A stretch of DNA of 64,000 bases, from contig JAITUU010000018.1 of assembly GCA_031286165.1 (NCBI GenBank), positions 47,934 through 111,933 on the forward strand, given 5' to 3'. Under the pieces are notes generated by a model. It was not told where the DNA came from. It saw only the letters and a list, made by a program, of their open reading frames with translations, and did no database searches. Position numbers and translations under genes: made by a program. This DNA comes from Bacteroidales bacterium (lineage in GTDB: Bacteria; Bacteroidota; Bacteroidia; Bacteroidales; UBA1715). Shown in pieces: positions 4,981 to 58,500 of this stretch (position 1 is its first letter; each line of letters starts with the position of its first letter).

Positions 4981-6386
4981 GCCAATAATTCTTTTTTGAA
5001 ATTCACCAAAAACACCTGCTCGGTAGCGCGAGTAACGGCGGTATAGAGCCAACGCAAAAAATCACCGGAAATACTATCTTCGGACAAAAATCCATGGTCT
5101 ATATACACGTGTTTCCACTGTCCGCCCTGCGCTTTATGGCACGTTACGGCGTAGGCAAATTTCACTTGCAGTGCATTGAAATACGGGTGTTTGCGCATTT
5201 GCTCATACACTTTGCGTTTGTTGCCCTCATCGGCATAGTCGGCAAGCACTTCGCGGTAGAGCGATTGCGATTGCTCATAGGTAAGTGCCGGAGCCTCGCT
5301 TTCTAATGTTTCCAAAAGAAGTTTTGCCTCTATTTCTACATTATAATCTATCAAAAGCAGACGAGCATTCACAAAAGAAAATCCGTATAAATTCTCGTAT
5401 TTCCCCAATTTAAGCACTTTTGCACTATCGCCATTGGCTATAAAATCGGTTTCGGGCACTTGACTTGCCCAAAAGTAGTTATTCTTCACTATCATGAGCA
5501 TATCGCCCACCGCAATACGCGATTCCTGCCATAAAATACTGCGGCGCACACCCTCGTTGTAGCGATAGGCTTGTTTATTGGAGCGAGTAATTACTATGCT
5601 TTCCTCATCGCCCACCGTGCCGTAGGAATGTTCCAACTCTTCCAGCAAATCGGCACCCGAAAGAGAGCGCACATCGGCAGTTTGACGGAATTTCGGGAAA
5701 TTTTGCAAGCCTCGAATATGTTCAATACTATTGCGAATAGCCGTAGCATTGCTCAAAATTCCTGAATTTTCGGCTTGGCGAAGCACTTGGGTGAGTTGCA
5801 CCGCGCGAGTAGGTTTCAAAAAAGTTTGAAAAATATAATCCGCCTGCAATGCCGGACTTTGCTGCAAACCCACCGGCGGCAACTGCGCCGAATCGCCTAT
5901 CAAAATCAATTTACAACCATTGTTGCCGGAAAACACAAACGTAAACAAATCGGCGAGCAACATTCCCGTGCCAAACATTGCCTGCTCCGCATATTCGGTG
6001 CTGAGCATAGAAGCCTCATCTACAAAAAAATACGTGCGCGGCTGCGAATTGAAGCCTATCGAAAATTTCGACAGCACATCGGCTTTTTGCTGACGGTATA
6101 TTTTTTTATGAATGGTACTCGCCGGTTTTCCGGTGTAGTGTGCCATTACTTTTGCCGCACGCCCGGTGGGAGCCAGCAGGCACGAAGGCATGTTGTCTTC
6201 GGCGAGTGTTTCTATTATGGTTTTCAATATGGTGGTTTTTCCCGTGCCGGCATAACCGTGAATTATGAAAACCTCATCGGATGAACACACAAAATCGGCA
6301 AACTGCTGCAACAACGTATCTTGGTCCGGCGTAGGTGCAAAAGGAAATTTTCCTAAAAATTTGGTATAGAGAAAGGTTTGTAGCAT
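4977..6386 (-). CDS. RecD/TraA-like superfamily-1 DNA helicase
   Basis: Walker A GYAGTGKTT, Walker B-like FFVDEASML, ILIGDSAQLPPV, C-terminal AVTCHKAQGGQW (SF1 motif VI-like). Start placed at ATG 6386 (MLQTFLY...), because the track start adds 9 aa. The 3' end overlaps the convergent response-regulator stop by 4 nt. Confidence 0.8.
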   Translation of the reverse strand: MLQTFLYTKFLGKFPFAPTPDQDTLLQQFADFVCSSDEVFIIHGYAGTGKTTILKTIIETLAEDNMPSCLLAPTGRAAKVMAHYTGKPASTIHKKIYRQQKADVLSKFSIGFNSQPRTYFFVDEASMLSTEYAEQAMFGTGMLLADLFTFVFSGNNGCKLILIGDSAQLPPVGLQQSPALQADYIFQTFLKPTRAVQLTQVLRQAENSGILSNATAIRNSIEHIRGLQNFPKFRQTADVRSLSGADLLEELEHSYGTVGDEESIVITRSNKQAYRYNEGVRRSILWQESRIAVGDMLMIVKNNYFWASQVPETDFIANGDSAKVLKLGKYENLYGFSFVNARLLLIDYNVEIEAKLLLETLESEAPALTYEQSQSLYREVLADYADEGNKRKVYEQMRKHPYFNALQVKFAYAVTCHKAQGGQWKHVYIDHGFLSEDSISGDFLRWLYTAVTRATEQVFLVNFKKELLA

Positions 6387-20475: not shown

Positions 20476-20832
20476 ATGAATAATGTTAAGAAATTGATTG
20501 TTTGGCAAAAATCGAGAGAGTTTGTGAAGGATATATACACACGTACCAAACTCTTTCCGCAAGACGAATTGTTTGGTTTAACATCACAAATTCGCAGGGC
20601 GGCAATTTTCATTACATTGAATATTGCCGAAGGTTCCGGTCGGGGAACAAATAAGGAATTTGCTCACTTTCTCGATATTGCATTTGCTTCGGCATACGAA
20701 GTTGAAGCACAAATTATTCTATCGTTGGATTTGGAATTTATTTCCCAAGAAGAATATGATGTGCTGTATGAAAAAATCCAAGAAATTCAAAAAATGATAA
20801 AAAAACTAAACGACACATTACGTAGTAGTTAA
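20476..20832 (+). CDS. four-helix-bundle protein (23S rRNA intervening-sequence protein family)
   Basis: 118 aa with the family pattern LIVWQKSREF...IY..TKLFPQDELFGLTSQIRRAA..I.LNIAEGSGR....EFAHFLDIAFASAYEVEAQI. Confidence 0.85.
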   Translation: MNNVKKLIVWQKSREFVKDIYTRTKLFPQDELFGLTSQIRRAAIFITLNIAEGSGRGTNKEFAHFLDIAFASAYEVEAQIILSLDLEFISQEEYDVLYEKIQEIQKMIKKLNDTLRSS

Positions 20833-20833
20833 A

Positions 20834-20870
20834 GGTCTTGTGTCTAATAGTCTATTGTCTAAAAATCTAA
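20834..20870. repeat. right arm of degenerate inverted repeat (GGTCTTGTGTCTAATAGTCTATTGTCTAAAAATCTAA)
   Basis: See the left arm at 20419-20460. Its period 7-8 GTCT-anchored units run up to the ATG at 20874. Confidence 0.65.
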
Positions 20871-20873
20871 AAA

Positions 20874-21416
20874 ATGAAAATCTACACAAAAACCGGTGAT
20901 TGCGGAAAAACATCACTCGTGGGCGGCAAGCGAGTAGAAAAATATTGCGAACGACTTGAATGTTACGGCACAGTTGATGAACTCAATGCCCACATTGGCG
21001 TGGTACACGATATGTGCGAAACCGAAGACGTGCGTACCATTCTTCTGCGTGTTCAAAACGATCTTTTCTCCATTGGCGGATTGCTCGCCTGCGAAAATGC
21101 CGCACAATTCCAACTTCCCTGCGTTGATTACACACACATAGAACTATTGGAACAAACGATTGACCGCTATAACGAAGCATTGCCGCAACTCAAAAGTTTT
21201 ATACTCCCTTCGGGAAATGTAGTAGCATCGCACTGCCACGTGGCTCGCACCGTGTGCCGCCGTGCCGAACGCGCAGTTGTGAAACTCGCCGAACACGAAA
21301 CAATAGACACACACATTGCCATATACCTCAACCGATTGTCGGATTTTCTTTTTGTGCTTGCGCGTAAAATAATGAATGATAGTGGGTTGCAGGAAATTAC
21401 ATGGAAAAAACCATAA
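20874..21416 (+). CDS. cob(I)yrinic acid a,c-diamide / cob(I)alamin adenosyltransferase, PduO type
   Basis: MKIYTKTGDCGKTSLVGGKRV...ECYGTVDELNAHIG N-terminus and 180-aa size typical of PduO-type ATR. Confidence 0.9.
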   Translation: MKIYTKTGDCGKTSLVGGKRVEKYCERLECYGTVDELNAHIGVVHDMCETEDVRTILLRVQNDLFSIGGLLACENAAQFQLPCVDYTHIELLEQTIDRYNEALPQLKSFILPSGNVVASHCHVARTVCRRAERAVVKLAEHETIDTHIAIYLNRLSDFLFVLARKIMNDSGLQEITWKKP

Positions 21417-21466
21417 TTTTTCTATAAAAAACACGGCAAAAACACGCTGTGTTGCAAAAAATACAC

Positions 21467-21474
21467 TACATTTG
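21467..21474 (+). promoter_or_regulatory. candidate -7 promoter box for the ilv leader
   Basis: tacatttg matches TAnnTTTG, 20 nt upstream of the leader-peptide ATG at 21495. Confidence 0.45.
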
Positions 21475-21494
21475 CTCCAATCAAAATTTATACA

Positions 21495-21545
21495 ATGAAA
21501 TTTTTTCAAACCATAGTAGTCGTGCAAGTCATTTTTCAAATGTGA
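21495..21545 (+). CDS. ilv leader peptide MKFFQTIVVVQVIFQM
   Basis: 16-codon ORF (ATG 21495, TGA 21543-21545) with 4 Val and 2 Ile clustered as IVVVQVI. Directly followed by mutually exclusive hairpins and a terminator. Not in the ORF track because it is under 60 aa. Confidence 0.6.
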   Translation: MKFFQTIVVVQVIFQM

Positions 21546-21617
21546 AATGGTGCAATTCTATTGTAATTTGAGCAAAATATAAAACACCATTCTCACCTGA
21601 GTTTGGTGTTTTTTTTA
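21546..21617 (+). promoter_or_regulatory. attenuator: anti-terminator / terminator alternative structures
   Basis: aatggtg (21546-21552) is complementary to caccatt (21585-21591). aaacacca (21582-21589) is complementary to tggtgttt (21604-21611), with an inner ctc/gag extension, followed by a T-run to 21617. The two pairings share 21585-21589. Confidence 0.6.
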
Positions 21618-21673
21618 TAGTTTTGAACACTGAAAAACAGAATAATACATACAAACGATTTAAACATAGAGAA

Positions 21674-23488
21674 ATGAAATTTCCACTCAAAAGCGAAACA
21701 TCAACACAAGGTCGCCGCATGGCGGGAGCACGCGCTCTTTGGCGTGCCAACGGTATGAAAGAAGAACAAATCGGCAAACCCATTATTGCCATAGTCAATT
21801 CATTTACGCAGTTTGTGCCGGGGCACGTGCATTTGCACGACATAGGGCAACAGGTGAAAGCCGAAATCGAAAAATTGGGCTGCTTTGCCGCCGAGTTCAA
21901 CACCATTGCCATAGACGATGGTATTGCCATGGGGCACGATGGTATGCTCTACTCCCTCCCTTCGCGCGATTTGATTGCCGACAGCGTGGAATATATGGTG
22001 AATGCTCACAAAGCCGATGCAATGGTGTGTATCTCGAATTGCGACAAAATTACGCCCGGTATGCTCATGGCAGCTATGCGATTGAATATTCCTGCCGTGT
22101 TTGTGAGCGGCGGACCTATGGAAGCCGGGAAATTGGACGGCAAACAGATTGACTTTATCGACTCGCTCATACAAAGTGCCGACACCACCGTGAGTGATTC
22201 GCAAGTGGACAAAATAGAACACGCAGCGTGCCCAACGTGTGGAAGTTGCAGCGGTATGTTCACTGCCAACTCTATGAACTGCCTCAACGAGGCTATCGGG
22301 TTGGCTCTGCCGGGCAACGGTACCATTGTGGCTACGCACGCCAACCGCAAACGCCTCTTTATGCAAGCCGCCAAACTGATTGTGGAAAACACCTATACAT
22401 ATTATCGCGATGGCGATGAAAGCGTACTTCCGCGCAGCATTGCCACCCGTCAAGCCTTTTTGAACGCCATGACGCTCGATATTGCCATGGGCGGTTCGTC
22501 CAACACCGTGCTTCACCTTTTGGCAATAGCCAACGAAGCAGGCGTGAACTTTACTATGGACGATATTGACGCGCTTTCGCGCAAAACGCCATGCCTTTGC
22601 AAAGTGGCTCCAAACACGCAAAAATACCATATTCAAGACGTGAATCGTGCCGGCGGTATTCTCGGCATTATGAACGAATTGAACAATGCCGGACTGATTA
22701 ATCCAAACGTGTTGCGCGTGGACGGAACGCTGGCGCAAATGCTCCAAAAAGCCGCCGAATGGCTCGGCGACACGCACTCCGTGTATGGCAGCGCACCGGC
22801 AAATAAATTCAACTTGGTGCTTGGTTCGCAAGAAACCTATTTCGACACGCTCGACACCGACCGCGCCGAAGGCTGTATTCGCAGCGTTGCCCACGCCTAC
22901 ACCAAAGAGGGCGGTTTGGCAATTCTCAAAGGAAACATAGCGCAAGACGGCTGTGTAATCAAAACCGCCGGAGTGGACGAAAGTATCTGGAAATTCAAAG
23001 GTCCGGCAAAAGTATTCACCTCGCAAGAGAGCGCGTGCGAAGGCATTTTGGGCGGAAAAGTACAAAGCGGCGATGTGGTGGTTATTACGCACGAAGGTCC
23101 CAAAGGCGGACCGGGCATGCAAGAAATGCTCTACCCCACCACCTATATTAAATCGCGGCACTTGGGCAAAGAGTGCGCCCTCATTACTGATGGTCGTTTC
23201 AGCGGCGGCACATCGGGGCTTTCTATCGGGCACATTTCGCCGGAGGCGGCTTCGGGCGGAAACATTGGCTTGGTGCAAGACGGCGATATAATCGAAATCG
23301 ACATTCCCAACCGCTCGATGAACGTATTGCTTTCCGAAGAAGAGTTGGCAACACGCCGCGCCGCCGAAGAAGCACGCGGCAAAGAGGCATGGACACCGAA
23401 AGACCGCAATCGCGTAGTGTCAAAATCACTCCGCGCCTACGCAAGTTTGGTAAGTTCGGCAGATAAAGGTGCGGTGCGAGAGATATAA
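21674..23488 (+). CDS. ilvD: dihydroxy-acid dehydratase
   Basis: Start moved to ATG 21674 ([54 protein letters not shown], colinear with the E. coli IlvD N-terminus). CDKITPGM and [16 protein letters not shown] Fe-S ligand blocks. The track start at 21623 is a TTG extension. Confidence 0.95.
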
Positions 23489-23498
23489 CAATACAGCC

Positions 23499-24074
23499 AT
23501 GAAAAAAGAAAAATTAATGCGTTATTTTTTTTCGGCATCGCTGCTGCTTATAGGCGTAGTGGTGGGTATTGCCATTCGGCATTATTACAATTTACCACTT
23601 TCTGAAACCATCAACATTGTAGATGTGGCAATGCTCATTACCACCGTATTTTTGGCAGTGTATGTGCCCAGCGTGCTCGATAAACAAGCACAAATTATGC
23701 GCGATAAGGCTGATTTGATAGAACAACGCATTATTGAATTTCAAACCTTACAGCGCAAACTCAACGAAATGGTGCAAATAGGCGAAGCGAACCACGAAGA
23801 ATGTTTAGCAATGAATAATTTGCTCGATGTAAGCGACCACCGTTTGGAAACGATTTTGACACTCATAGCCTATTACGACAAAGATATTTTGCTCCGCCCG
23901 AATGTGAAAAATTTGAAAGAATTGTGCAAAAATCATCGCGAATTACTGTTTTTGGAGCACATAGCACCCGAAGGAAAAAAATTCGCGAAACCCGACCGCG
24001 ATGCCGAAGAAGAGTTATATAATAAAATAGATAGATTGTCGAGTTTGATACTATTCGACGTAAATAACGTGTAA
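23499..24074 (+). CDS. hypothetical membrane-anchored protein inside the ilv operon
   Basis: Start set at ATG 23499 (MKKEKLMRYFFSASLLLIGVVVGIAI...). Two N-terminal TM helices then a helical soluble part. No family recognised. Confidence 0.45.
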   Translation: MKKEKLMRYFFSASLLLIGVVVGIAIRHYYNLPLSETINIVDVAMLITTVFLAVYVPSVLDKQAQIMRDKADLIEQRIIEFQTLQRKLNEMVQIGEANHEECLAMNNLLDVSDHRLETILTLIAYYDKDILLRPNVKNLKELCKNHRELLFLEHIAPEGKKFAKPDRDAEEELYNKIDRLSSLILFDVNNV

Positions 24075-24223
24075 CACACAAAAAAGAAAAACCTATGAGA
24101 ATGAAAAAAAGACGCGATGCCTTTGTAACATGGTCATCGGGCATAAAAATGCAAATGAATAGCAGAATACTCAAATACATGGCAAAATGGTCGGATAGTA
24201 TTCACAGTGATACACAAAAAACT

Positions 24224-25441
24224 ATGGTGTGGCGCAATTTTGAGCCAAATTCCATGTTTGCCGACCGCATAGCCGATGTGCCAAAATCCTTCATTCGCGA
24301 AATTTTGAAAGTAACTGTGTCGCAAGATATTATTTCCTTTGCCGGCGGCTTGCCCAATCGTGAACTTTTTCCCATTCAGGCACTGAAAGAAGCCGGCAAC
24401 CGTGTATTCGACAACGATTGCCCCGATGCACTGCAATACAGCACCACCGAAGGTTCGCTCCAACTGCGCAAATACATAGCCGAACGCTACAAAAAAGTGA
24501 AGGGACTAAACATAGAACCGAAAAATATTCTCATAACCACCGGTTCGCAGCAGGCTCTTGACCTTTTGGGAAAAACATTTTTGAACGAAAACGATAGAGT
24601 AATCATAGAAAAGCCGGGTTATTTGGGCGCAATTCAATTATTTTCCATTTACAAAGCACGATTTTCGCCGGTAACGCTGGAAAATGACGGTGTGAATTTA
24701 GCAGAATTGGAAAAGGCATCGCGCTTGCGCAACACAAAATTGATGTACACCGTACCGAATTTTCAAAATCCTACGGGTATAACGTACAGCAACGAAAAAC
24801 GCGAACAAATTGCCGAAATTCTACGCGGACTGCCCATGATTTTGATTGAAGACGACCCCTATGGCGATTTGCGCTACGAAGGTACACAACAAAATTCATT
24901 CATGCACTACTTGCCCGAACAAACTATTTTACTCGGTTCTTTTTCTAAAACCGTAGTACCATCGTTCCGCACCGGCTGGGTGGTGGCTCCCGACGAAATT
25001 ATGGAAAAACTCATTGTGGCAAAGCAAGCCTCGGATTTGCATACCAATTTTTTTACGCAAAAATTACTCTTTGAATATTTGAGCAACAACGATTTAGATG
25101 CGCACATTGAAAAAATTCGCGCGGTGTATGGACGTCAATGCGTGGCAATGATAGAAAGTATTAAACGCCATTTTCCTGAAAATGTGCAATATACGCTGCC
25201 CGAAGGCGGAATGTTTCTGTGGGTAACACTGCCCGAAGGCGTATCGTCTATGGATTTGGTGAATTTAGCAATTCAAAAAGATGTGATTTTTGTTCCCGGC
25301 AACCCCTTCTATTCAAGTCAAGACCAAGTGGTGAACACCCTGCGTTTGAATTTCTCGTGTGTGGACGAAGCCACCATAGAAATAGGCATCAAACGTCTTG
25401 GCGAAACTATTAAGGAATATTTGGCTGCGAATAACAAATAA
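24224..25441 (+). CDS. PLP-dependent class I/II aminotransferase (2-aminoadipate/aromatic aminotransferase-like)
   Basis: IREIL...IISFAGGLPNRELFP N-terminal block, PNFQNPTG, PLP-Lys context SFSKTVVPSFRTGWVVAP. The start is ambiguous: ATG 24224 is chosen, while 24254 and the track start 24095 are possible. Confidence 0.75.
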   Translation: MVWRNFEPNSMFADRIADVPKSFIREILKVTVSQDIISFAGGLPNRELFPIQALKEAGNRVFDNDCPDALQYSTTEGSLQLRKYIAERYKKVKGLNIEPKNILITTGSQQALDLLGKTFLNENDRVIIEKPGYLGAIQLFSIYKARFSPVTLENDGVNLAELEKASRLRNTKLMYTVPNFQNPTGITYSNEKREQIAEILRGLPMILIEDDPYGDLRYEGTQQNSFMHYLPEQTILLGSFSKTVVPSFRTGWVVAPDEIMEKLIVAKQASDLHTNFFTQKLLFEYLSNNDLDAHIEKIRAVYGRQCVAMIESIKRHFPENVQYTLPEGGMFLWVTLPEGVSSMDLVNLAIQKDVIFVPGNPFYSSQDQVVNTLRLNFSCVDEATIEIGIKRLGETIKEYLAANNK

Positions 25442-25445
25442 TACG

Positions 25446-25516
25446 ATGTGCTACTATGCTGACAATACAATAATTCTCAATTATCATCAAAAAAATATCT
25501 ACTAAATCTATATAGT
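25446..25516 (+). repeat. low-complexity spacer colinear with 7907-7980
   Basis: atgtgctactatgc versus atgtgctaatatgc (13/14 identical), caatacaataatt versus caatataacaatgaat, and tatctactaa identical in both. Both end at an ATG. Confidence 0.55.
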
Positions 25517-27235
25517 ATGTTACAAAAAACACAAATAACCGGCTCCGAAGCACTTCTGCGCATATTGATAGAAGAGGGCGTTGATACCATTTTTGGCTAT
25601 CCGGGCGGACAAATTATTCCGGTATTCGATACCTTATACGATTTCAAAGACCAACTCAATCACATTCTCACTCGCCACGAGCAGGGCGCGGTACACGCTG
25701 CGCAAGGCTATGCGCGAGTGTCGGGCAAAGTGGGCGTGTGTTTTGCAACTTCGGGTCCGGGTGCTACCAACGTGATTACCGGCATAGGCGATGCCATGCT
25801 CGATAGCACACCGCTCATAGTAATTGCCGGACAGGTAGGCACTAATCTGCTCGGCACCGATGCCTTTCAGGAAATTGACGTGGTGGGCATTACCCAGCCA
25901 ATCACCAAATGGGCGTATCAAATTCGCCGCGCCGAAGACATTGCGTGGGCTTTGGCACGCGCGTTTTACATTGCCCGCAGTGGTCGCCCCGGTCCGGTGG
26001 TGCTCGATTTTACAAAAAATGCACAAGTGCAAAAAACCGATATTACTTACGAAGCCTGCGATTTTATTCGCAGTTATATTCCCGTGCCAAAAATCAGTGC
26101 CGAACAAATAGATGCCGCTGCCGCACTCATCAATGCTGCAAAAAAACCGTTGGCACTCGTGGGGCAAGGGGTAATTTTGAGCGGAGCGGAAGAAGAATTG
26201 AAGGCATTTTTGGAAAAAGCCGATATTCCTGCCGGAAATACCTTGCTCGGACTTTCGGCTCTACCTTCGGATTACAGGCTCAATAAAGGATTTTTGGGAA
26301 TGCACGGAAACATTGCGCTGAACGTAAAAACCAACGAAGCCGATGTCATTGTGGCTATCGGTATGCGATTTGACGACCGCGTTACCGGCGATTTGAGCAG
26401 ATACGCACGACAAGCAAAAATTATTCACATCGACATTGACCCTTCGGAAATCGGGAAAAATGTGCCGGTGGCTGTGCCGGTGCTTGGCGATGCAAAAGAG
26501 GCATTGGCTATTTTAACCCTCAAAGTGAACAATGCGGAACATGCGGAATGGATTTCTTCCTTCGACAAATATGCCGACATAGAATTTGAGCAAGTAATCA
26601 ATAAAGAAATTTACCCGAAAACGGGTGCCATTACTATGGGCGAAGTGGTGCGCAGAGTGTCGGAAGCCACCGAACACAAGGCTGTGCTTGTAACCGATGT
26701 AGGGCAAAATCAAATGATGGCATCGCGCTATTTCAAATTTTCGCAAACGCGCAGTGTAATCACTTCGGGAGGGTTGGGTACTATGGGATTTGGCATTCCT
26801 GCCGGCATGGGGGCAAAAATCGGTGCACCGGAACGCACCGTGTGTCTATTCTGCGGCGATGGCGGATTTCAAATGACCATGCAGGAATTGGGAACAATTA
26901 TGCAGGAAAACATCGGTTTGAAAATGATTGTTATGAATAATCAATATTTAGGTATGGTGCGCCAATGGCAAGAGTTGTTTTACGATGAACGCTATTCATT
27001 TACCGACATGGTAAATCCGCACTTTACCATGATAGCCAAAGCCTACGGCATAGGCACAAGCGAAGTAAGCAAACGCGAGGATTTGGACACTGCCATTGCC
27101 GATATGCTCAAAGACGACAAACCCTACCTGCTGGTAGTAAATGTAGAACAAAAGGGATTGGTGTATCCTATGGTACCTGCCGGCGCGGGCGTTACCGATA
27201 TTATTACGCCACAAGGAAAACTACAAGTACAATAA
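25517..27235 (+). CDS. ilvB: acetolactate synthase (acetohydroxy-acid synthase) large subunit
   Basis: 572 aa. ThDP-enzyme blocks GYPGGQIIPVFD, ATSGPGATNVITG, and the ThDP-binding GDGGFQM...NN motif. Confidence 0.95.
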   Translation: MLQKTQITGSEALLRILIEEGVDTIFGYPGGQIIPVFDTLYDFKDQLNHILTRHEQGAVHAAQGYARVSGKVGVCFATSGPGATNVITGIGDAMLDSTPLIVIAGQVGTNLLGTDAFQEIDVVGITQPITKWAYQIRRAEDIAWALARAFYIARSGRPGPVVLDFTKNAQVQKTDITYEACDFIRSYIPVPKISAEQIDAAAALINAAKKPLALVGQGVILSGAEEELKAFLEKADIPAGNTLLGLSALPSDYRLNKGFLGMHGNIALNVKTNEADVIVAIGMRFDDRVTGDLSRYARQAKIIHIDIDPSEIGKNVPVAVPVLGDAKEALAILTLKVNNAEHAEWISSFDKYADIEFEQVINKEIYPKTGAITMGEVVRRVSEATEHKAVLVTDVGQNQMMASRYFKFSQTRSVITSGGLGTMGFGIPAGMGAKIGAPERTVCLFCGDGGFQMTMQELGTIMQENIGLKMIVMNNQYLGMVRQWQELFYDERYSFTDMVNPHFTMIAKAYGIGTSEVSKREDLDTAIADMLKDDKPYLLVVNVEQKGLVYPMVPAGAGVTDIITPQGKLQVQ

Positions 27236-27249
27236 CAAATAACTGAATT

Positions 27250-27792
27250 ATGCCAACACAACAAAGCACTTTATACACCATTACCGTGTTTTCAGAAAAT
27301 ACGGTGGGATTGCTCAATCAAATTACCGTGATTTTTACCCGCAGGGGTATCAATATTGAAACACTTTCGGTGTCGCCTTCGGCTCTCGAAGGGATTCATA
27401 AATTTACCATTACCGTATTTTGCACCAAAGATATGGTAGAAAAAATTGTACAACAAATAGATAAACGCATCGACATTATCAAAGCCTATTACAATACAGA
27501 CGATGAATTGGTATTCCAAGAAATTGCCATGTACAAAATTGCCAGCGACAAATTGCTGCAATATGGTAATATAGAGGAACTTATACGCCGTTACAATATT
27601 CGCATTCTCGATATTAACGAAACTTTTGCTGTGCTCGAAAAAACCGGTCATTATGCCGAAACACAAGGACTTTTCAACGATTTACAGGAAATTTTCGGTG
27701 TGAGTGTGTTGCAGTTCATTCGTTCGGGGCGCATAGCCATTACCAAATCGAAGGTGGAGCGATTAAACGATATGCTCAAGTCGAGGAATTAA
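27250..27792 (+). CDS. ilvN: acetolactate synthase small (regulatory) subunit
   Basis: ACT-domain start LYTITVFSENTVGLLNQITVIFTRRGINIETLSVS. 180 aa, directly after ilvB. Confidence 0.9.
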   Translation: MPTQQSTLYTITVFSENTVGLLNQITVIFTRRGINIETLSVSPSALEGIHKFTITVFCTKDMVEKIVQQIDKRIDIIKAYYNTDDELVFQEIAMYKIASDKLLQYGNIEELIRRYNIRILDINETFAVLEKTGHYAETQGLFNDLQEIFGVSVLQFIRSGRIAITKSKVERLNDMLKSRN

Positions 27793-27803
27793 AAAATAGG
27801 GCA

Positions 27804-27839
27804 CAAAAAAAGCACTTACGGTTGTAAGTGCTTTTTTTG
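27804..27839. terminator. bidirectional rho-independent terminator (ilvN / tRNA-Asn)
   Basis: agcacttac (27811-27819), ggtt loop, gtaagtgct (27824-27832), flanked by an A-run on the left and a T-run on the right. Confidence 0.8.
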
Positions 27840-27843
27840 TATG

Positions 27844-27917
27844 CTCCCGAAACTGGACTTGAACCAGTGACCCTCTGATTAACAGTCAGATGCTCTAACC
27901 AACTGAGCTATTCGGGA
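27844..27917 (-). tRNA. tRNA-Asn (anticodon GTT)
   Basis: The reverse complement folds as a cloverleaf: acceptor TCCCGAA/TTCGGGA (7 bp), D arm GCTC-AGTTGGTTA-GAGC, anticodon arm TCTGA-CTGTTAA-TCAGA (anticodon GTT), T arm ACTGG-TTCAAGT-CCAGT, discriminator G. No CCA is encoded. Confidence 0.9.
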
Positions 27918-27943
27918 ATAAAGGTTGCTTTTGAAAAGCAGGG

Positions 27944-27951
27944 CAAAGATA
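27944..27951 (-). promoter_or_regulatory. candidate -7 promoter box for tRNA-Asn
   Basis: Plus-strand caaagata is TATCTTTG on the minus strand, 26 nt upstream of the tRNA 5' end. Confidence 0.4.
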
Positions 27952-28059
27952 GATATTTTTTTAAAACTTCATAGTGATTTCACGCTTTTTTTGTGTTTTT
28001 TGTTACAATTTTTTGCAAAATATTGATTTTCAATACGTGGAAAATAGCGCACGCAGACA

Positions 28060-28617
28060 TTATTTCACTATTTTGTAACTCAAACCAAAACTTATGGCAT
28101 TGTTGTGGAATTGATTGTTCAACCGCGCCATGCTATACATAAACCGTGCATCGGCAGCCAAGCGACCGCCTATACGCACTTCGGCACCTGCTATAATAGG
28201 AAAATCCCATGTGCCGTAGTCGTCTGATTCTTGTTTTACGTTGTAGGTGGTGGTGTTTTCAAAAACTTTCACCGCCGCTGCCATGCCCAACTGCGCATAC
28301 AATGGCAAAAAGAATAACTTTTGTGAAAAAATCAGCGGAATTTCAGCGTAGCCAATGGAAGAGCGAACGTTGCCATCGCTACTGCGAGCACCGCGCCCGG
28401 TGTAATTGATTTCGAGTTGCGCCGCCCATCTGCCCGAATCGAAGGCTCGCTGCACAAACAATCCGCCGTAGGGACTAAATTTGTTGTAACCACCCATGCC
28501 ATCGCCGTCTATTTGCGAAGTTACGCCGCCGCCGCGTATGCCGCCGCTGAAATTTTGCGCCCAGAGCGCGGAAGTGCAAAATACTGTTGCACAAAGAAGT
28601 GTTGTAATTGTTTTCAT
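28060..28617 (-). CDS. small outer-membrane beta-barrel (porin-family) protein
   Basis: Signal peptide MKTITTLLCATVFCTSALWAQ, then alternating hydrophobic beta-strand pattern with aromatic girdle residues. 185 aa. Confidence 0.6.
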   Translation of the reverse strand: MKTITTLLCATVFCTSALWAQNFSGGIRGGGVTSQIDGDGMGGYNKFSPYGGLFVQRAFDSGRWAAQLEINYTGRGARSSDGNVRSSIGYAEIPLIFSQKLFFLPLYAQLGMAAAVKVFENTTTYNVKQESDDYGTWDFPIIAGAEVRIGGRLAADARFMYSMARLNNQFHNNAISFGLSYKIVK

Positions 28618-55400: not shown

Positions 55401-55423
55401 GTATATCATATTTTAGGTTCATG

Positions 55424-55431
55424 CAAATATA
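55424..55431 (-). promoter_or_regulatory. candidate -7 promoter box for the TA-like pair
   Basis: Plus-strand caaatata is TATATTTG on the minus strand, 23 nt upstream of ATG 55400. Confidence 0.45.
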
Positions 55432-55463
55432 ACGGTTTTTACTGCAAAAAATGTATTTTCTAC

Positions 55464-55506
55464 AAAAAAAAAGAGGCTGTTCTCGGTGAGAACAGCCTCT
55501 TTTTTA
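55464..55506 (-). terminator. rho-independent terminator of the FIVAR-repeat giant gene
   Basis: agaggctgttctc (55472-55484) is complementary to gagaacagcctct (55488-55500), flanked by an A-run (a T-run on the minus strand) and a T-run. Confidence 0.85.
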
Positions 55507-55519
55507 CATTACTTCTTTT

Positions 55520-58500
55520 TTATTGTTTGATAATAGATTGTGTTTCCACAGTTCCATCTTCAAAGGTTACACGTACTACGTAAGTGCCTTGTGCAAGCGT
55601 TGCTACATTGATAACCGCTTGGTTGCTATTTGGTGTTTCCACCGCTACCACTGCGCCGCGAGTAGATACTACGGTAATCGTGCGGATTGCTTTACCTGCG
55701 CTCACGGTTACTTGCGAAGTTGCAAGCGTTGGATACACGCGGAGTGCTGCTGCATCTACTTCATCTATATCGGTACATTCGCCGGTATATGAACCTAAGA
55801 AGGTATCGAATTTTGCTTGCAAACTATTGAATATATTATCTATATCAGTTTGGTTTTTCGCTTTGTTGTGGTCGGCTTTCGCTGATTCAAGTGCATTTAC
55901 AATGGCTGTTCTCGCTGAATATGGATAGCCTGGACCAATGCTGCAATTTACAAATACTGCGCCATTATTAATTTCACTTTGTACTTGTGCAAAGAGCATG
56001 CGAAGCATTTGGTCGTTTCCTGCTGAAATTTTCGCATTGTTATATGCTTGAATTGCATCTTGCAACACATCATAAGCATTGGTAAGTTGGCTTTGCTCGG
56101 TTGCGCTTGCAAGTACCGCTTCTGCTGCTTTAATAGCATTGGTAAGTGCAGTAACAGCCTCTTGCGGATAGTTACCATTGCTTGTTCCAATGTTGTTGTT
56201 CGATAGTTTCAATGCTTTGTTTGCATTGGCTATTGCTGCTTCAAGCGGACCTTTTTCAAGGCTTACCGTAGAGTTCAAGAATAGGTCGCGAGCATCTTTC
56301 AGGTCTATCACTGCTTGGTCAACTTCTTCTTGGGTAGCATCTTCGTTATTTTTCACAAGGGTAGCATCGAGCATTGCAGTTAGCAAAATTGCTTTTGAAC
56401 CGTTTTTATAGTTGCCACCTTGATTTTGCTCTTTCGCGCTACCATATAGTGCGGTAACTTGGTCTATGAGCAGATACAAATCGGTTTTGATAACGTTTGA
56501 GCCGGGTATTTGCGCTGCACTGAAAGCATCGACTGCATCTTGCAATGCTTTGGTAGCATTATCCACTATTTCTTGCGTAAGTTGCGGATGTCCTTTTGCT
56601 GTTTGTGCAGCACCTATGGCATCACGAAGAGCATCTTTTGCTTCTTGCGGATATTGGAAAGGTTTATCACCGGGTTGAGCAATACTGTGTATGTCATTGG
56701 CTTGTTTTATCAAGTTTTCAAGCGCAGTGCTGTTTACAAGTATTTGTTTTGCTTGGAAGTCTTTCACTGCTTGGTCTAAGTCGGCTTTCGCTTTGTTTAT
56801 ATCTGCTTGGCTTGAACCTGCTGCATTAAGTACTATTTCTGCTATACGAATGGCATCTCTCAAATCCGATTTTGAACCATAGGGGTAGCGTTCGTGGTGT
56901 TCGCCTTCTATTGCATTGTCATAAGCATCGTTTGCCGCATTGATAGATGCTTGGAGGGCACCGGTAGAAACACTTTGTTTCGATTGCTCGAAAGTGCTTA
57001 TAGCAGAGAGCAACGCCTGAGTTCTTGCAGTTACATTCGCAGCCGTAGAATTTGATTTATCGTATTCTGCTTGTGCTGCATCTACCGCATCTTTCAATGC
57101 CAAGAATGCCGATTCGGGGTATTGGTTGTTACCATTTCCTTGCGGAGAGTTGAGCAACAAAGCGTTTGCCGTGTTCAATGCTGCAAGAAGAGCGTCTTTG
57201 TTCACCACTATTTTTGCATTATTTACGTCTGTTATAGCCTTCGCCAAATCAATAACCGCTTGGTCTATTTGTGCTTGGGTAGCAGTAGTGCTTGCAAGCG
57301 TTCCTTGTGCAGAGGTTATTGCATTGTTGAAAATAGTAACAGCCGATTGTGGGTATTCTCCGTTTCCGCTGCCCACTTTCACGTCATCTTTCAAAGCAAG
57401 TGCTTCGGCAATTTTATCGCGGAGTGCTTTGCGGTCTATGGTTACTTTTCTGCTGTTGAAGAGAGCAATAGCATTGTTGAGAGCAGTAACTTCGGCATCA
57501 ATAGCAGCTTGAAGCGCAGAAGGATTATTCAAAGTAGTAGTAGCATAACCCACTGCATTTTGCAATGCTTGTATAGCACCGGCAGCGTATTGACCGAAGT
57601 CTTCGCCTTCTTGCGGATTGCTTGCAAGAAGTCCGTTTGCAATGTTAATAGCGGCTTGCAATTCACTTCTGTCTATGCTGTTGGTGCTTGCATTTACCCA
57701 ATTAGTAACTGCTTGATTCAGTGCTGCAAGGGCGGCATTTACTTCGGCTGTGGTTGCTTGCGGATTGGTATTTACCACAGTAGCATCTTCAATTGCTTTT
57801 GCAAGTGCTGTACCTATTGCTACCGGTTTTTGACCGTCAAGTTCTCCGTAAGTAACAGAATTGTATTTCTCGTTTGCTCCGGTAAGTGCATCGGCTAAGG
57901 CAGTTTTGTCCACCACTTCGGGAGTAAAGGCGTCCATTACCGATTGAAGGGTCAATCCTGCTGCTACCAAATCGCTTTGTGTAGAAGCAGCGGCATCGGC
58001 TACTGCTTGTGCATCGGCTATGGCATTGGTAAGAGCGGTAATTTTGCTTTGCAAATAGAATCCGTTTCCGGTACCCGGTTTCACAGCAGGGTCGGTAAGT
58101 TTGGCTTGTGCTTGGGCAATTTTTGCGAGTAAGGCATCTATTGCGGCTTGCAAGTCAATTTTTTTACCGTTGAAAATACCGATAGCACTTTCCAAATTGC
58201 TTATGGCAGTTGCTATGTCATCGCCATCGGCACCTGCATTATCTACCACTGCTTGTGCAGTGTTGATTGCGGTTTTGAAGGTTGATTTTGAACCACTTTC
58301 GTAGCAACCGTTGGCAGAGCATTGGTCGTTTGCTGCATCGTGAAGTCCGTTTGCTTGTGCAATTAAGTCTATCAAGGCTGTTTTGCTTACCACATTGGGT
58401 ACAAAGGCTTCAATTGCGGCATTGATGGCTGCCGTGCGGGCATCTACTTGTGCTTGGGTAGCAAGGTCATCGGCATTGGTGGTTTTACCATTGCTTATGG

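Follow-up and report, generated by a model that had tools for sequence, protein, structure and literature searches.

The subject of this study is the 257-nucleotide (nt) gap that precedes ilvD in a 64,000-nt stretch of contig JAITUU010000018.1 from a Bacteroidales bacterium. This stretch was analysed as a whole and is called the window here; all its coordinates are counted from its first letter. The gap most probably contains a ribosome-mediated leader-peptide transcription attenuator, which would control an operon of ilvD, a gene of no known family, an aminotransferase gene, ilvB and ilvN. We give this reading a probability of about 0.85. A valine/isoleucine (Val/Ile) attenuator had been proposed in an initial annotation and is supported by our results: all parts were found in order, the helices exceed those of shuffled sequences, the RNA switched folds under simulated ribosome positions, and the layout is kept in relatives. 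Such elements are not confined to this genome; the window holds a divergent version of a design that is spread through the phylum, and the proposed mechanism is the classical one.

The upstream gene ends at 21416 and the ATG of ilvD is at 21674. Between them, a −7 promoter box with the sequence TAcaTTTG was found at the place given in the initial annotation and fits the Bacteroidota consensus TAnnTTTG. The leader open reading frame (ORF) starts 20 nt after the box and, as read before, consists of 16 codons encoding MKFFQTIVVVQVIFQM. The peptide has 4 Val, 2 Ile, 3 Phe and no Leu residues, and Ile or Val occupies 6 of 8 consecutive positions. By analogy with known leaders, codons 7-13 would have the regulatory role. 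No Shine-Dalgarno sequence was found before this ORF. The coordinates of all parts are collected in Table 1.

Prediction of alternative structures on 21480-21625, which had been recommended at the outset, yielded mutually exclusive helices. The whole leader folds at −35.1 kcal/mol (z = −4.3) and forms two modules, a long hairpin and a terminator. For each helix, the energy was compared with 200 dinucleotide shuffles. The long hairpin between segments 1 and 2 (21500-21578) has −18.7 kcal/mol and a z-score of −3.5, and was matched by 1 of the 200 shuffles. The leader ORF provides the 5' arm of this hairpin, and the 3' arm begins inside the stop codon. At the core, UCAUUUU of segment 1 (21529-21535, codons 12-14) pairs with GAAAUGG (21544-21550). 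The initial annotation had taken accat at 21510-21514 as the partner of segment 2 within the ORF; in the minimum-free-energy (MFE) folds this is not so, and the predicted partner is UCAUUUU.

Segment 2 is also the 5' arm of the antiterminator. The exact complementarity of aatggtg (21546-21552) and caccatt (21585-21591) was as claimed and the two segments do pair, but the helix is longer than had been described. It comprises 11 base pairs with one bulged C, includes the UGA stop, and is formed by GUGAAAUGGUG (21542-21552) with CACCAUU (21585-21591) and UCAC (21593-21596). The energy of −11.9 kcal/mol corresponds to a z-score of −2.4 and was reached by 1 of 200 shuffles. When random 19-mers of the window were paired with segment 3, 0.5% of them did so as well as the stop-codon segment.

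The terminator arms aaacacca (21582-21589) and tggtgttt (21604-21611) were likewise read correctly in the initial annotation. The hairpin (21582-21611) has −13.6 to −15.0 kcal/mol, the latter with an A/U extension, and a z-score of −5.7, which was reached by none of the 200 shuffles. The T-run following it had been drawn to 21617, which is an A; it consists of 8 T and ends at 21616. The terminator with its U8 tract is located 57 nt before the ATG of ilvD. Compared with the terminators of the Bacteroidales ilvD leader family described below, the stem is interrupted by a 2x2 U.U internal loop and is longer by two outer pairs. A generic promoter/terminator scanner did not list the hairpin because of this internal loop.

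The response to a translating ribosome was simulated by constrained folding, where the bases covered by the ribosome were masked and the RNA that had emerged before segment 4 (to about 21599) was folded. The footprint sizes were those generally known for bacterial ribosomes. When the footprint ended at 21530-21540, corresponding to an A site at Val8 to Val12, the nascent RNA formed the antiterminator of segments 2 and 3 in silico with −11.9 kcal/mol. When the footprint covered the stop codon (to about 21557), the terminator alone was formed. The free RNA without a ribosome folded into the hairpin of segments 1 and 2 and the terminator, with segment 3 left free.

From these folds we propose the following mechanism. 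Transcription would start a few nucleotides 3' of the TAcaTTTG box, and the 16-codon leader would be translated behind the moving RNA polymerase. With an ample supply of Val- and Ile-tRNA, the ribosome would reach the UGA and cover segment 2 (21542-21552), and when no ribosome is present, segment 2 would be sequestered in the long hairpin with segment 1. In both situations segment 3 would pair with segment 4 into the terminator (21582-21611 and U8), and transcription would stop near 21616. When charged Val- or Ile-tRNA is scarce, the ribosome would stall at codons 7-13, segment 1 would be melted and segment 2 would be free. The free segment 2 would then pair with segment 3 over 11 base pairs before segment 4 is made, so that no terminator is formed and the polymerase would read through into ilvD.

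The conservation of the leader was analysed in other Bacteroidales. A scan with the IlvD protein of one genome per species gave 80 loci (L001-L080) with 73-84% identity, and 79 of these were usable. They were searched for an ATG-initiated mini-ORF rich in branched-chain amino acids (BCAA), with at least 6 Ile, Leu or Val in 8 residues and not more than 400 nt upstream of ilvD. Such a mini-ORF was kept in 65 of the 79 loci, compared with 9/79 on the reverse complement and 10.6% of shuffled sequences. At a score of at least 7 in 8, the search found 34/79 in sense, none of the 79 on the reverse complement and 1.8% of the shuffles. Examples of the leader peptides are MNNVLHIILVVVLLVISR of Parabacteroides, MNLHTSINLAVLHIIRVVVVASRA of Bacteroides and MTFQRIYTILVLVVVLLVQNQR of Paludibacter. 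The initial annotation had named this conservation, together with covariation, as a check on its proposal.

About 58 loci share the full layout of promoter, leader, antiterminator with embedded stop codon, and terminator, the latter 23-61 nt 3' of the leader stop. In 55 of the 58, the leader ATG is preceded at a distance of 12-58 nt by a TAnnTTTG box, compared with 4% of random 80-nt windows. The sequence of the terminator is very constant and reads AA(G)CCUUUCUC-loop-GAGAAAGG(C)UU followed by a U run. The leader stop, a UGA in most loci, lies inside GUGAGAAAGGUU, a sequence perfectly complementary to the terminator 5' arm. When a stalled ribosome was simulated, an antiterminator of at least 7 base pairs was formed in 58/58 loci, and its 5' arm is found between −3 and +20 from the stop codon in 50 of them. 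No conservation across the family is seen in the spacer that separates segments 2 and 3.

Covariation was tested on an alignment of 56 sequences. For the terminator, 91.9% of the cells were paired in register and 35-69% in slid registers; six pairs showed double changes, and none of 500 shuffles reached the observed score. For the antiterminator, 90.5% of the cells were paired and 43-59% in slid registers, and one pair covaried from UA to GC in 10 sequences. In the Barnesiella-type loci, CUC/GAG is changed to CC/GG jointly in segments 2, 3 and 4, as seen by eye. According to the survey, a single predicted attenuator design stands before ilvD in Bacteroides, Parabacteroides, Paludibacter, Dysgonomonas, Barnesiella and their relatives, and its range includes Flavobacterium.

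The genes upstream of the leader fall into 32 clusters in 44 loci, and 18 of them are on the opposite strand. Because the upstream genes differ, the leader element belongs to ilvD. A composite detector required a BCAA mini-ORF, a terminator not more than 65 nt away and an antiterminator of at least 8 base pairs close to the stop codon. Applied to 804 kb, comprising the window and 30 loci with both strands of each, it hit ilvD leaders and nothing else, with a single hit in the window.

The 60 leaders collected are 16-37 amino acids long, and outside the run of Ile, Leu and Val their sequences vary widely between genera. When five of the family peptides were looked up as exact proteins, four were absent and one was present as 'uncharacterised protein'; this deposited leader has 31 amino acids and occurs on hundreds of contigs. 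The near-invariant CCUUUCU of the family segment 3 is identical to the 3'-terminal bases of the Bacteroidota 16S rRNA. Segments 2 and 4, containing (G)GAGAAAGG, would be Shine-Dalgarno-like complements of the 16S 3' end, which could be a coincidence or reflect a sequence-specific role. CCUUUCU is absent from the window copy.

The window copy was compared with this family and aligned in register when MAFFT was used. The position before ilvD and the order of the TAnnTTTG box, leader ORF, stop-overlapping antiterminator arm and terminator are the same. As with the family arm, the antiterminator 5' arm of the window (21542-21552) overlaps the leader stop (21543-21545). When 50 family members, with the window excluded, were used to build a covariance model, its top match in the window was 21513-21616, at 35.2 bits and with an E roughly estimated at 7e-5. 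The primary sequence of the family, GUGAGAAAGG / AA(G)CCUUUCUC / GAGAAAGG(C)UU, is not kept and is replaced in the window by GUGAAAUGGUG / AACACCAUUCUC / GAGUUUGGUGUU. The CCUUU of the family in segment 3 is CCAUU in the window, the GAAAGG of segment 2 is AAUGG, and segment 1 reads UCAUUUU. An additional AC in segment 3 has its counterparts in a GU in segment 4 and a terminal G in segment 2, and these differences look compensatory. The hairpin of segments 1 and 2 is strong in the window and is predicted in only 20/58 family members.

The peptide also differs. The window leader is the only one of the 60 without Leu, the other 59 carrying 1-7 Leu residues; at 16 codons it is tied for the shortest, and it has the most Phe. 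The window copy retains the four-way pairing and the ORF and abandons the conserved sequence and all Leu codons. It is probably a much diverged homologue of the family, and less probably an element that originated independently at the same site. A more far-reaching idea, which we consider possible but rather doubtful, is that the window holds a re-engineered version of the phylum-wide ilv attenuator with compensated changes in all four segments, retuned from Leu, Val and Ile to Val and Ile only. If this were true, the near-invariant CCUUUCUC/GAGAAAGG sequence would not be required for function.

Several points weigh against the attenuator reading. The terminator was the more stable fold at equilibrium in every case, and the switch must therefore be kinetic, as in the classical systems. 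No good TTTG was found as a −33 element at the canonical spacing from the −7 box. The peptide contains no more than six regulatory residues, with a longest tandem run of three, and a BCAA score of 6/8 is by itself reached by about 10% (10.6%) of the shuffles. The covariance model gives 28.2 bits to an unrelated terminator at 55402-55505, so its score for the leader is partly generic. With a sequence-only hidden Markov model (HMM) of the family in nhmmer, the window copy was the best match in the window, at 5.8 bits and an E of 0.78, which is not significant; the case for homology to the family is therefore made by the structure-aware model and by the position. A search for closer relatives, in which covariation within the lineage of the window might be seen, found none; the best IlvD identities were 84% among genomes and 82% among metagenomes, and segments of the window type were absent from all of these. 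Leader translation, stalling, premature 3' ends and amino-acid specificity are features that we infer for this organism.

The same RNA could also be switched in another way. In the first alternative, the terminator and antiterminator are real and an RNA-binding protein, a tRNA or a metabolite acts on them, with the small ORF being incidental. The unusual conservation of CCUUUCUC/GAGAAAGG from Bacteroides to Flavobacterium could hint at such a sequence-specific partner, and the pairing of segments 1 and 2 is missing from the predictions for most family members. The window copy, however, has lost this conserved primary sequence and has retained the pairings and the ORF. In the family, no feature is conserved more consistently than the ORF with its BCAA run; the spacer from segment 2 to segment 3 shows no such conservation, and the stop codon is placed in or beside segment 2 in 50/58 loci. 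Searches of Rfam for a riboswitch or T-box gave no match in the region, in the whole window or in four canonical relatives. We consider this alternative very unlikely.

Still less probable is a chance arrangement, in which an ordinary and possibly leaky terminator or a structured 5' untranslated region lies beside a fortuitous ORF and no amino acid is sensed. AT-rich DNA readily gives hydrophobic mini-ORFs, as the shuffles and the 9/79 reverse complements show, and the window leader, with 16 codons and no Leu, is the weakest of the family. The composite arrangement, however, was found nowhere outside ilvD leaders in the 804 kb, and dozens of genera, whose upstream genes are unrelated, have kept the layout before ilvD. 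In addition, a promoter box stands between the upstream gene and the hairpin, and a constitutive terminator placed between promoter and biosynthetic operon would make little sense. Finally, a function of the short transcript or of the hydrophobic peptide itself, as a trans-acting small RNA or a membrane peptide with attenuation secondary or absent, would fit a stable, structured terminated product of about 135 nt and the wide occurrence of the deposited 31-residue family member, but is very improbable as the peptides of 16-37 amino acids differ widely between genera outside the Ile/Leu/Val run and the element is always linked in cis to ilvD.

The leader-peptide attenuator proposed for the window follows the logic of the Escherichia coli ilvGMEDA (ilvL) and ilvBN (ivbL) leaders and of the trp-type four-segment model, with regulatory codons, mutually exclusive helices of segments 1:2, 2:3 and 3:4, and an intrinsic terminator before BCAA genes. 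It has no sequence or Rfam relationship to the E. coli ilv leaders and differs from them in its Bacteroidota promoter, the lack of a Shine-Dalgarno sequence and the stop codon within the antiterminator arm. The ilvL and ivbL peptides have 32 amino acids each, compared with 16 in the window. Rfam, whose amino-acid leader families include those for Leu, Thr, His and Trp and Bacteroid-trp, contained no leader family matching 20800-28500 even at E values up to 10, none matching the whole window at the gathering score, and no model in Rfam 15 matched the leaders of the four canonical relatives. The abstract of Vitreschak et al. 2004 is said to report BCAA attenuators 'in some cases' in Bacteroidetes/Chlorobi.

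BCAA leader-peptide attenuation with the same terminator motif is already on record for Flavobacterium psychrophilum (PMC9723704). There, the 437-nt 5' region of ilvE-ilvD-ilvB-ilvH-ilvC is annotated as a leader-peptide attenuation element (PMC9723704, supporting information (SI) D9, Table S7) and has a mapped SigA-type transcription start site (PMC9723704). The deposited sequence contains three tandem units of leader peptide and terminator; the published annotation names the first peptide only (PMC9723704 Table S7). In two of the three units, MTTNTIIII(I)SIIIRSFE ends with a UGA inside GAGUGAGUCAGGCUGG and is followed by AAGCCUUUCUCAUUCACUUGAGAAAGGCUU (AAGCCUUUCUCA-loop-UGAGAAAGGCUU) and a U run. 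This terminator motif is the Bacteroidales family consensus (nhmmer 25 bits, E 7e-7). Among the expression values shown, the 5' region is above ilvE in most conditions (PMC9723704), which fits premature termination. The F. psychrophilum element shares with the window the phylum, the pathway and a short BCAA-rich leader ORF. It differs in having three tandem attenuators with Ile-dominated peptides before ilvE. The window contains a single unit, whose peptide is of the Val/Ile type and whose primary sequence has diverged, with CACCAUUCUCAC as segment 3 and the 5.8 bits in nhmmer.

Another Bacteroidota precedent for leader-peptide attenuation is the Bacteroidetes tryptophan peptide leader RNA (Bacteroid-trp, an Rfam motif), which is cited in the SI of PMC9723704. 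It concerns another amino acid, operon and sequence and has no match to the window. BCAA-rich leaders with alternative hairpins are also reported in the three-hairpin model of Corynebacterium glutamicum ilvBNC (PMC11857589) and in the Leu-rich leader before the ilv genes of Staphylococcus aureus (PMC5794164), both in unrelated lineages and with unrelated sequences. For Bacteroidaceae, no more than two RNA regulogs are listed in a RegPrecise survey of 2013, which also states that Ile/Val attenuators are absent from Rfam. The Bacteroides thetaiotaomicron transcriptome paper mentions leader-like small ORFs in general terms, and ilvD/BT_2078 is not listed in those of its supplements that were examined.

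The leader is a concrete and testable candidate for a cis-regulator of BCAA synthesis in an uncultured Bacteroidales lineage. The design is spread over the phylum with an unusually constant sequence, yet it has no Rfam model and its peptides are unannotated. Since ribosome-mediated attenuation requires the coupling of transcription and translation, such leaders are a handle on coupling in a phylum largely without Shine-Dalgarno-led initiation. The general picture of attenuation is unchanged, and no new mechanism is involved.

The family searches identified the genes flanking the leader as the initial annotation had named them, with ilvD, a gene x, an aminotransferase gene, ilvB and ilvN in this order. 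They lie on the same strand with short gaps and are therefore likely to form one operon from ilvD to ilvN. The ilvD product scored 1051 bits against PRK12448, an NCBIfam equivalog with a cut-off of 710. The alignment with its relatives begins at residue 1, and the start of ilvD is therefore the ATG at 21674 and not the TTG at 21623. The mechanical ORF list contains, as noted before, an ilvD ORF extended to the TTG and an antisense ORF of 131 amino acids over the leader (21144-21539). Both are artefacts; the annotation of the ilvD start is corrected accordingly, and the antisense ORF is a purely mechanical call.

Table 1. Parts of the proposed attenuator and neighbouring features in the window
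Feature	Position	Strand	Remarks
Bacteroidota-type −7 promoter box, TAcaTTTG	21467-21474	+	TACATTTG; consensus TAnnTTTG
Leader ORF, 16 codons and UGA	21495-21545 (stop 21543-21545)	+	MKFFQTIVVVQVIFQM
Presumed regulatory codons	21513-21533	+	Ile7 AUA, Val8 GUA, Val9 GUC, Val10 GUG, (Gln11), Val12 GUC, Ile13 AUU
Segment 1	21500-21540	+	5' arm of the long 1:2 hairpin, within the ORF; MFE structures
Segment 2	21542-21552	+	antiterminator 5' arm including the leader stop codon; GUGAAAUGGUG
Segment 3	21582-21596	+	terminator 5' arm, AAACACCA 21582-21589 and CUC 21592-21594; overlaps the antiterminator 3' arm
Segment 4	21599-21611	+	terminator 3' arm, GAG 21599-21601 and UGGUGUUU 21604-21611
U8 tract of the intrinsic terminator	21609-21616	+
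ilvD (dihydroxy-acid dehydratase)	21674-23488	+	first structural gene; Pfam and NCBIfam, PRK12448
ORF of a membrane-anchored protein, about 191 amino acids	23499-24074	+	no family; presumed operon member
Class I/II aminotransferase, 448 amino acids	24095-25441	+	presumed operon member
ilvB	25517-27235	+	presumed operon member
ilvN	27250-27792	+	presumed operon member
Strong palindromic terminator	27802-27841	.	closes the operon; common to the convergent tRNA-Asn gene
tRNA-Asn gene	27843-27917	-	convergent
Cobalamin adenosyltransferase gene	20874-21416		upstream neighbour

Two other roles of the region before ilvD were considered and ruled out. The hairpin is not the terminator of the upstream cobalamin adenosyltransferase gene, since the promoter box intervenes and the upstream genes of the relatives are unrelated or divergent. 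The leader stop is 128 nt away from the ilvD ATG, and for this reason reinitiation of translation, or translational coupling, from the leader was rejected as well.

The product of the ORF of about 191 amino acids between ilvD and the aminotransferase gene has a predicted N-terminal hydrophobic helix and no match in Pfam or NCBIfam, and is an odd passenger for a BCAA operon. In the relative L001, its place is occupied by an ORF of 557 amino acids. The best match of the aminotransferase was to the aminotransferase domain of MocR/PdxR-type regulators, with 249 bits, which is below the cut-off; models of valine-pyruvate transaminase matched more weakly. Two genes upstream of the leader, and unrelated to it, lies a PF05635 gene for a 23S rRNA intervening-sequence protein (20476-20832, + strand). 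The region 55402-55585 contains a strong terminator formed by the palindrome GAGGCUGUUCUC...GAGAACAGCCUC, which has U runs on either strand and received 28 and 23 bits from the covariance model. This is a generic bidirectional terminator.

About 14 of the 79 surveyed loci were below the leader score. In eight loci (L002, L018, L038, L046, L066, L067, L076 and L079), no leader or terminator was visible in about 330 nt upstream of ilvD, and a TAnnTTTG box is located about 40 nt before the gene. These leaderless loci imply that the attenuator was lost or gained repeatedly within the Bacteroidales. Also below the score, L031 has the canonical frame without an ATG and is possibly initiated at a TTG. 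The Val-dominated leaders MKLFVVVMNNNLVSVVVKTNR and MKQTVVILHSKRLSVVFITTGKG of L008 and L024, about 60-170 nt upstream of ilvD, were below it as well. Their terminator, CUUCCCCCAAAAAGGGAAG with a U run, is different, giving a second sequence type with the same logic.

In L003, which with 83% ilvD identity is among the closest relatives, a TAccTTTG box is followed almost directly by the family terminator ACCUUUCUC-loop-GAGAAAGGU and U7 (5915-5985 of that locus, with ilvD at 6001). There is no BCAA leader, and an ORF of four codons (MTFL) overlaps the 5' arm of the terminator. This element may be a decayed attenuator or a terminator under a different control. In the Bacteroides/Phocaeicola-like loci L057, L059, L071, L077 and L080, the leader ORF runs through the antiterminator arm (...RGEKG...) and ends about 19 nt later, so that, unlike in most of the family, the stop codon lies outside segment 2. 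The canonical leader MNNSILLVNVVVLLVKS and terminator of L014 (5254-5307 of that locus) were found about 700 nt upstream of ilvD and not at 100-250 nt, and an insertion appears to separate the attenuator from ilvD.

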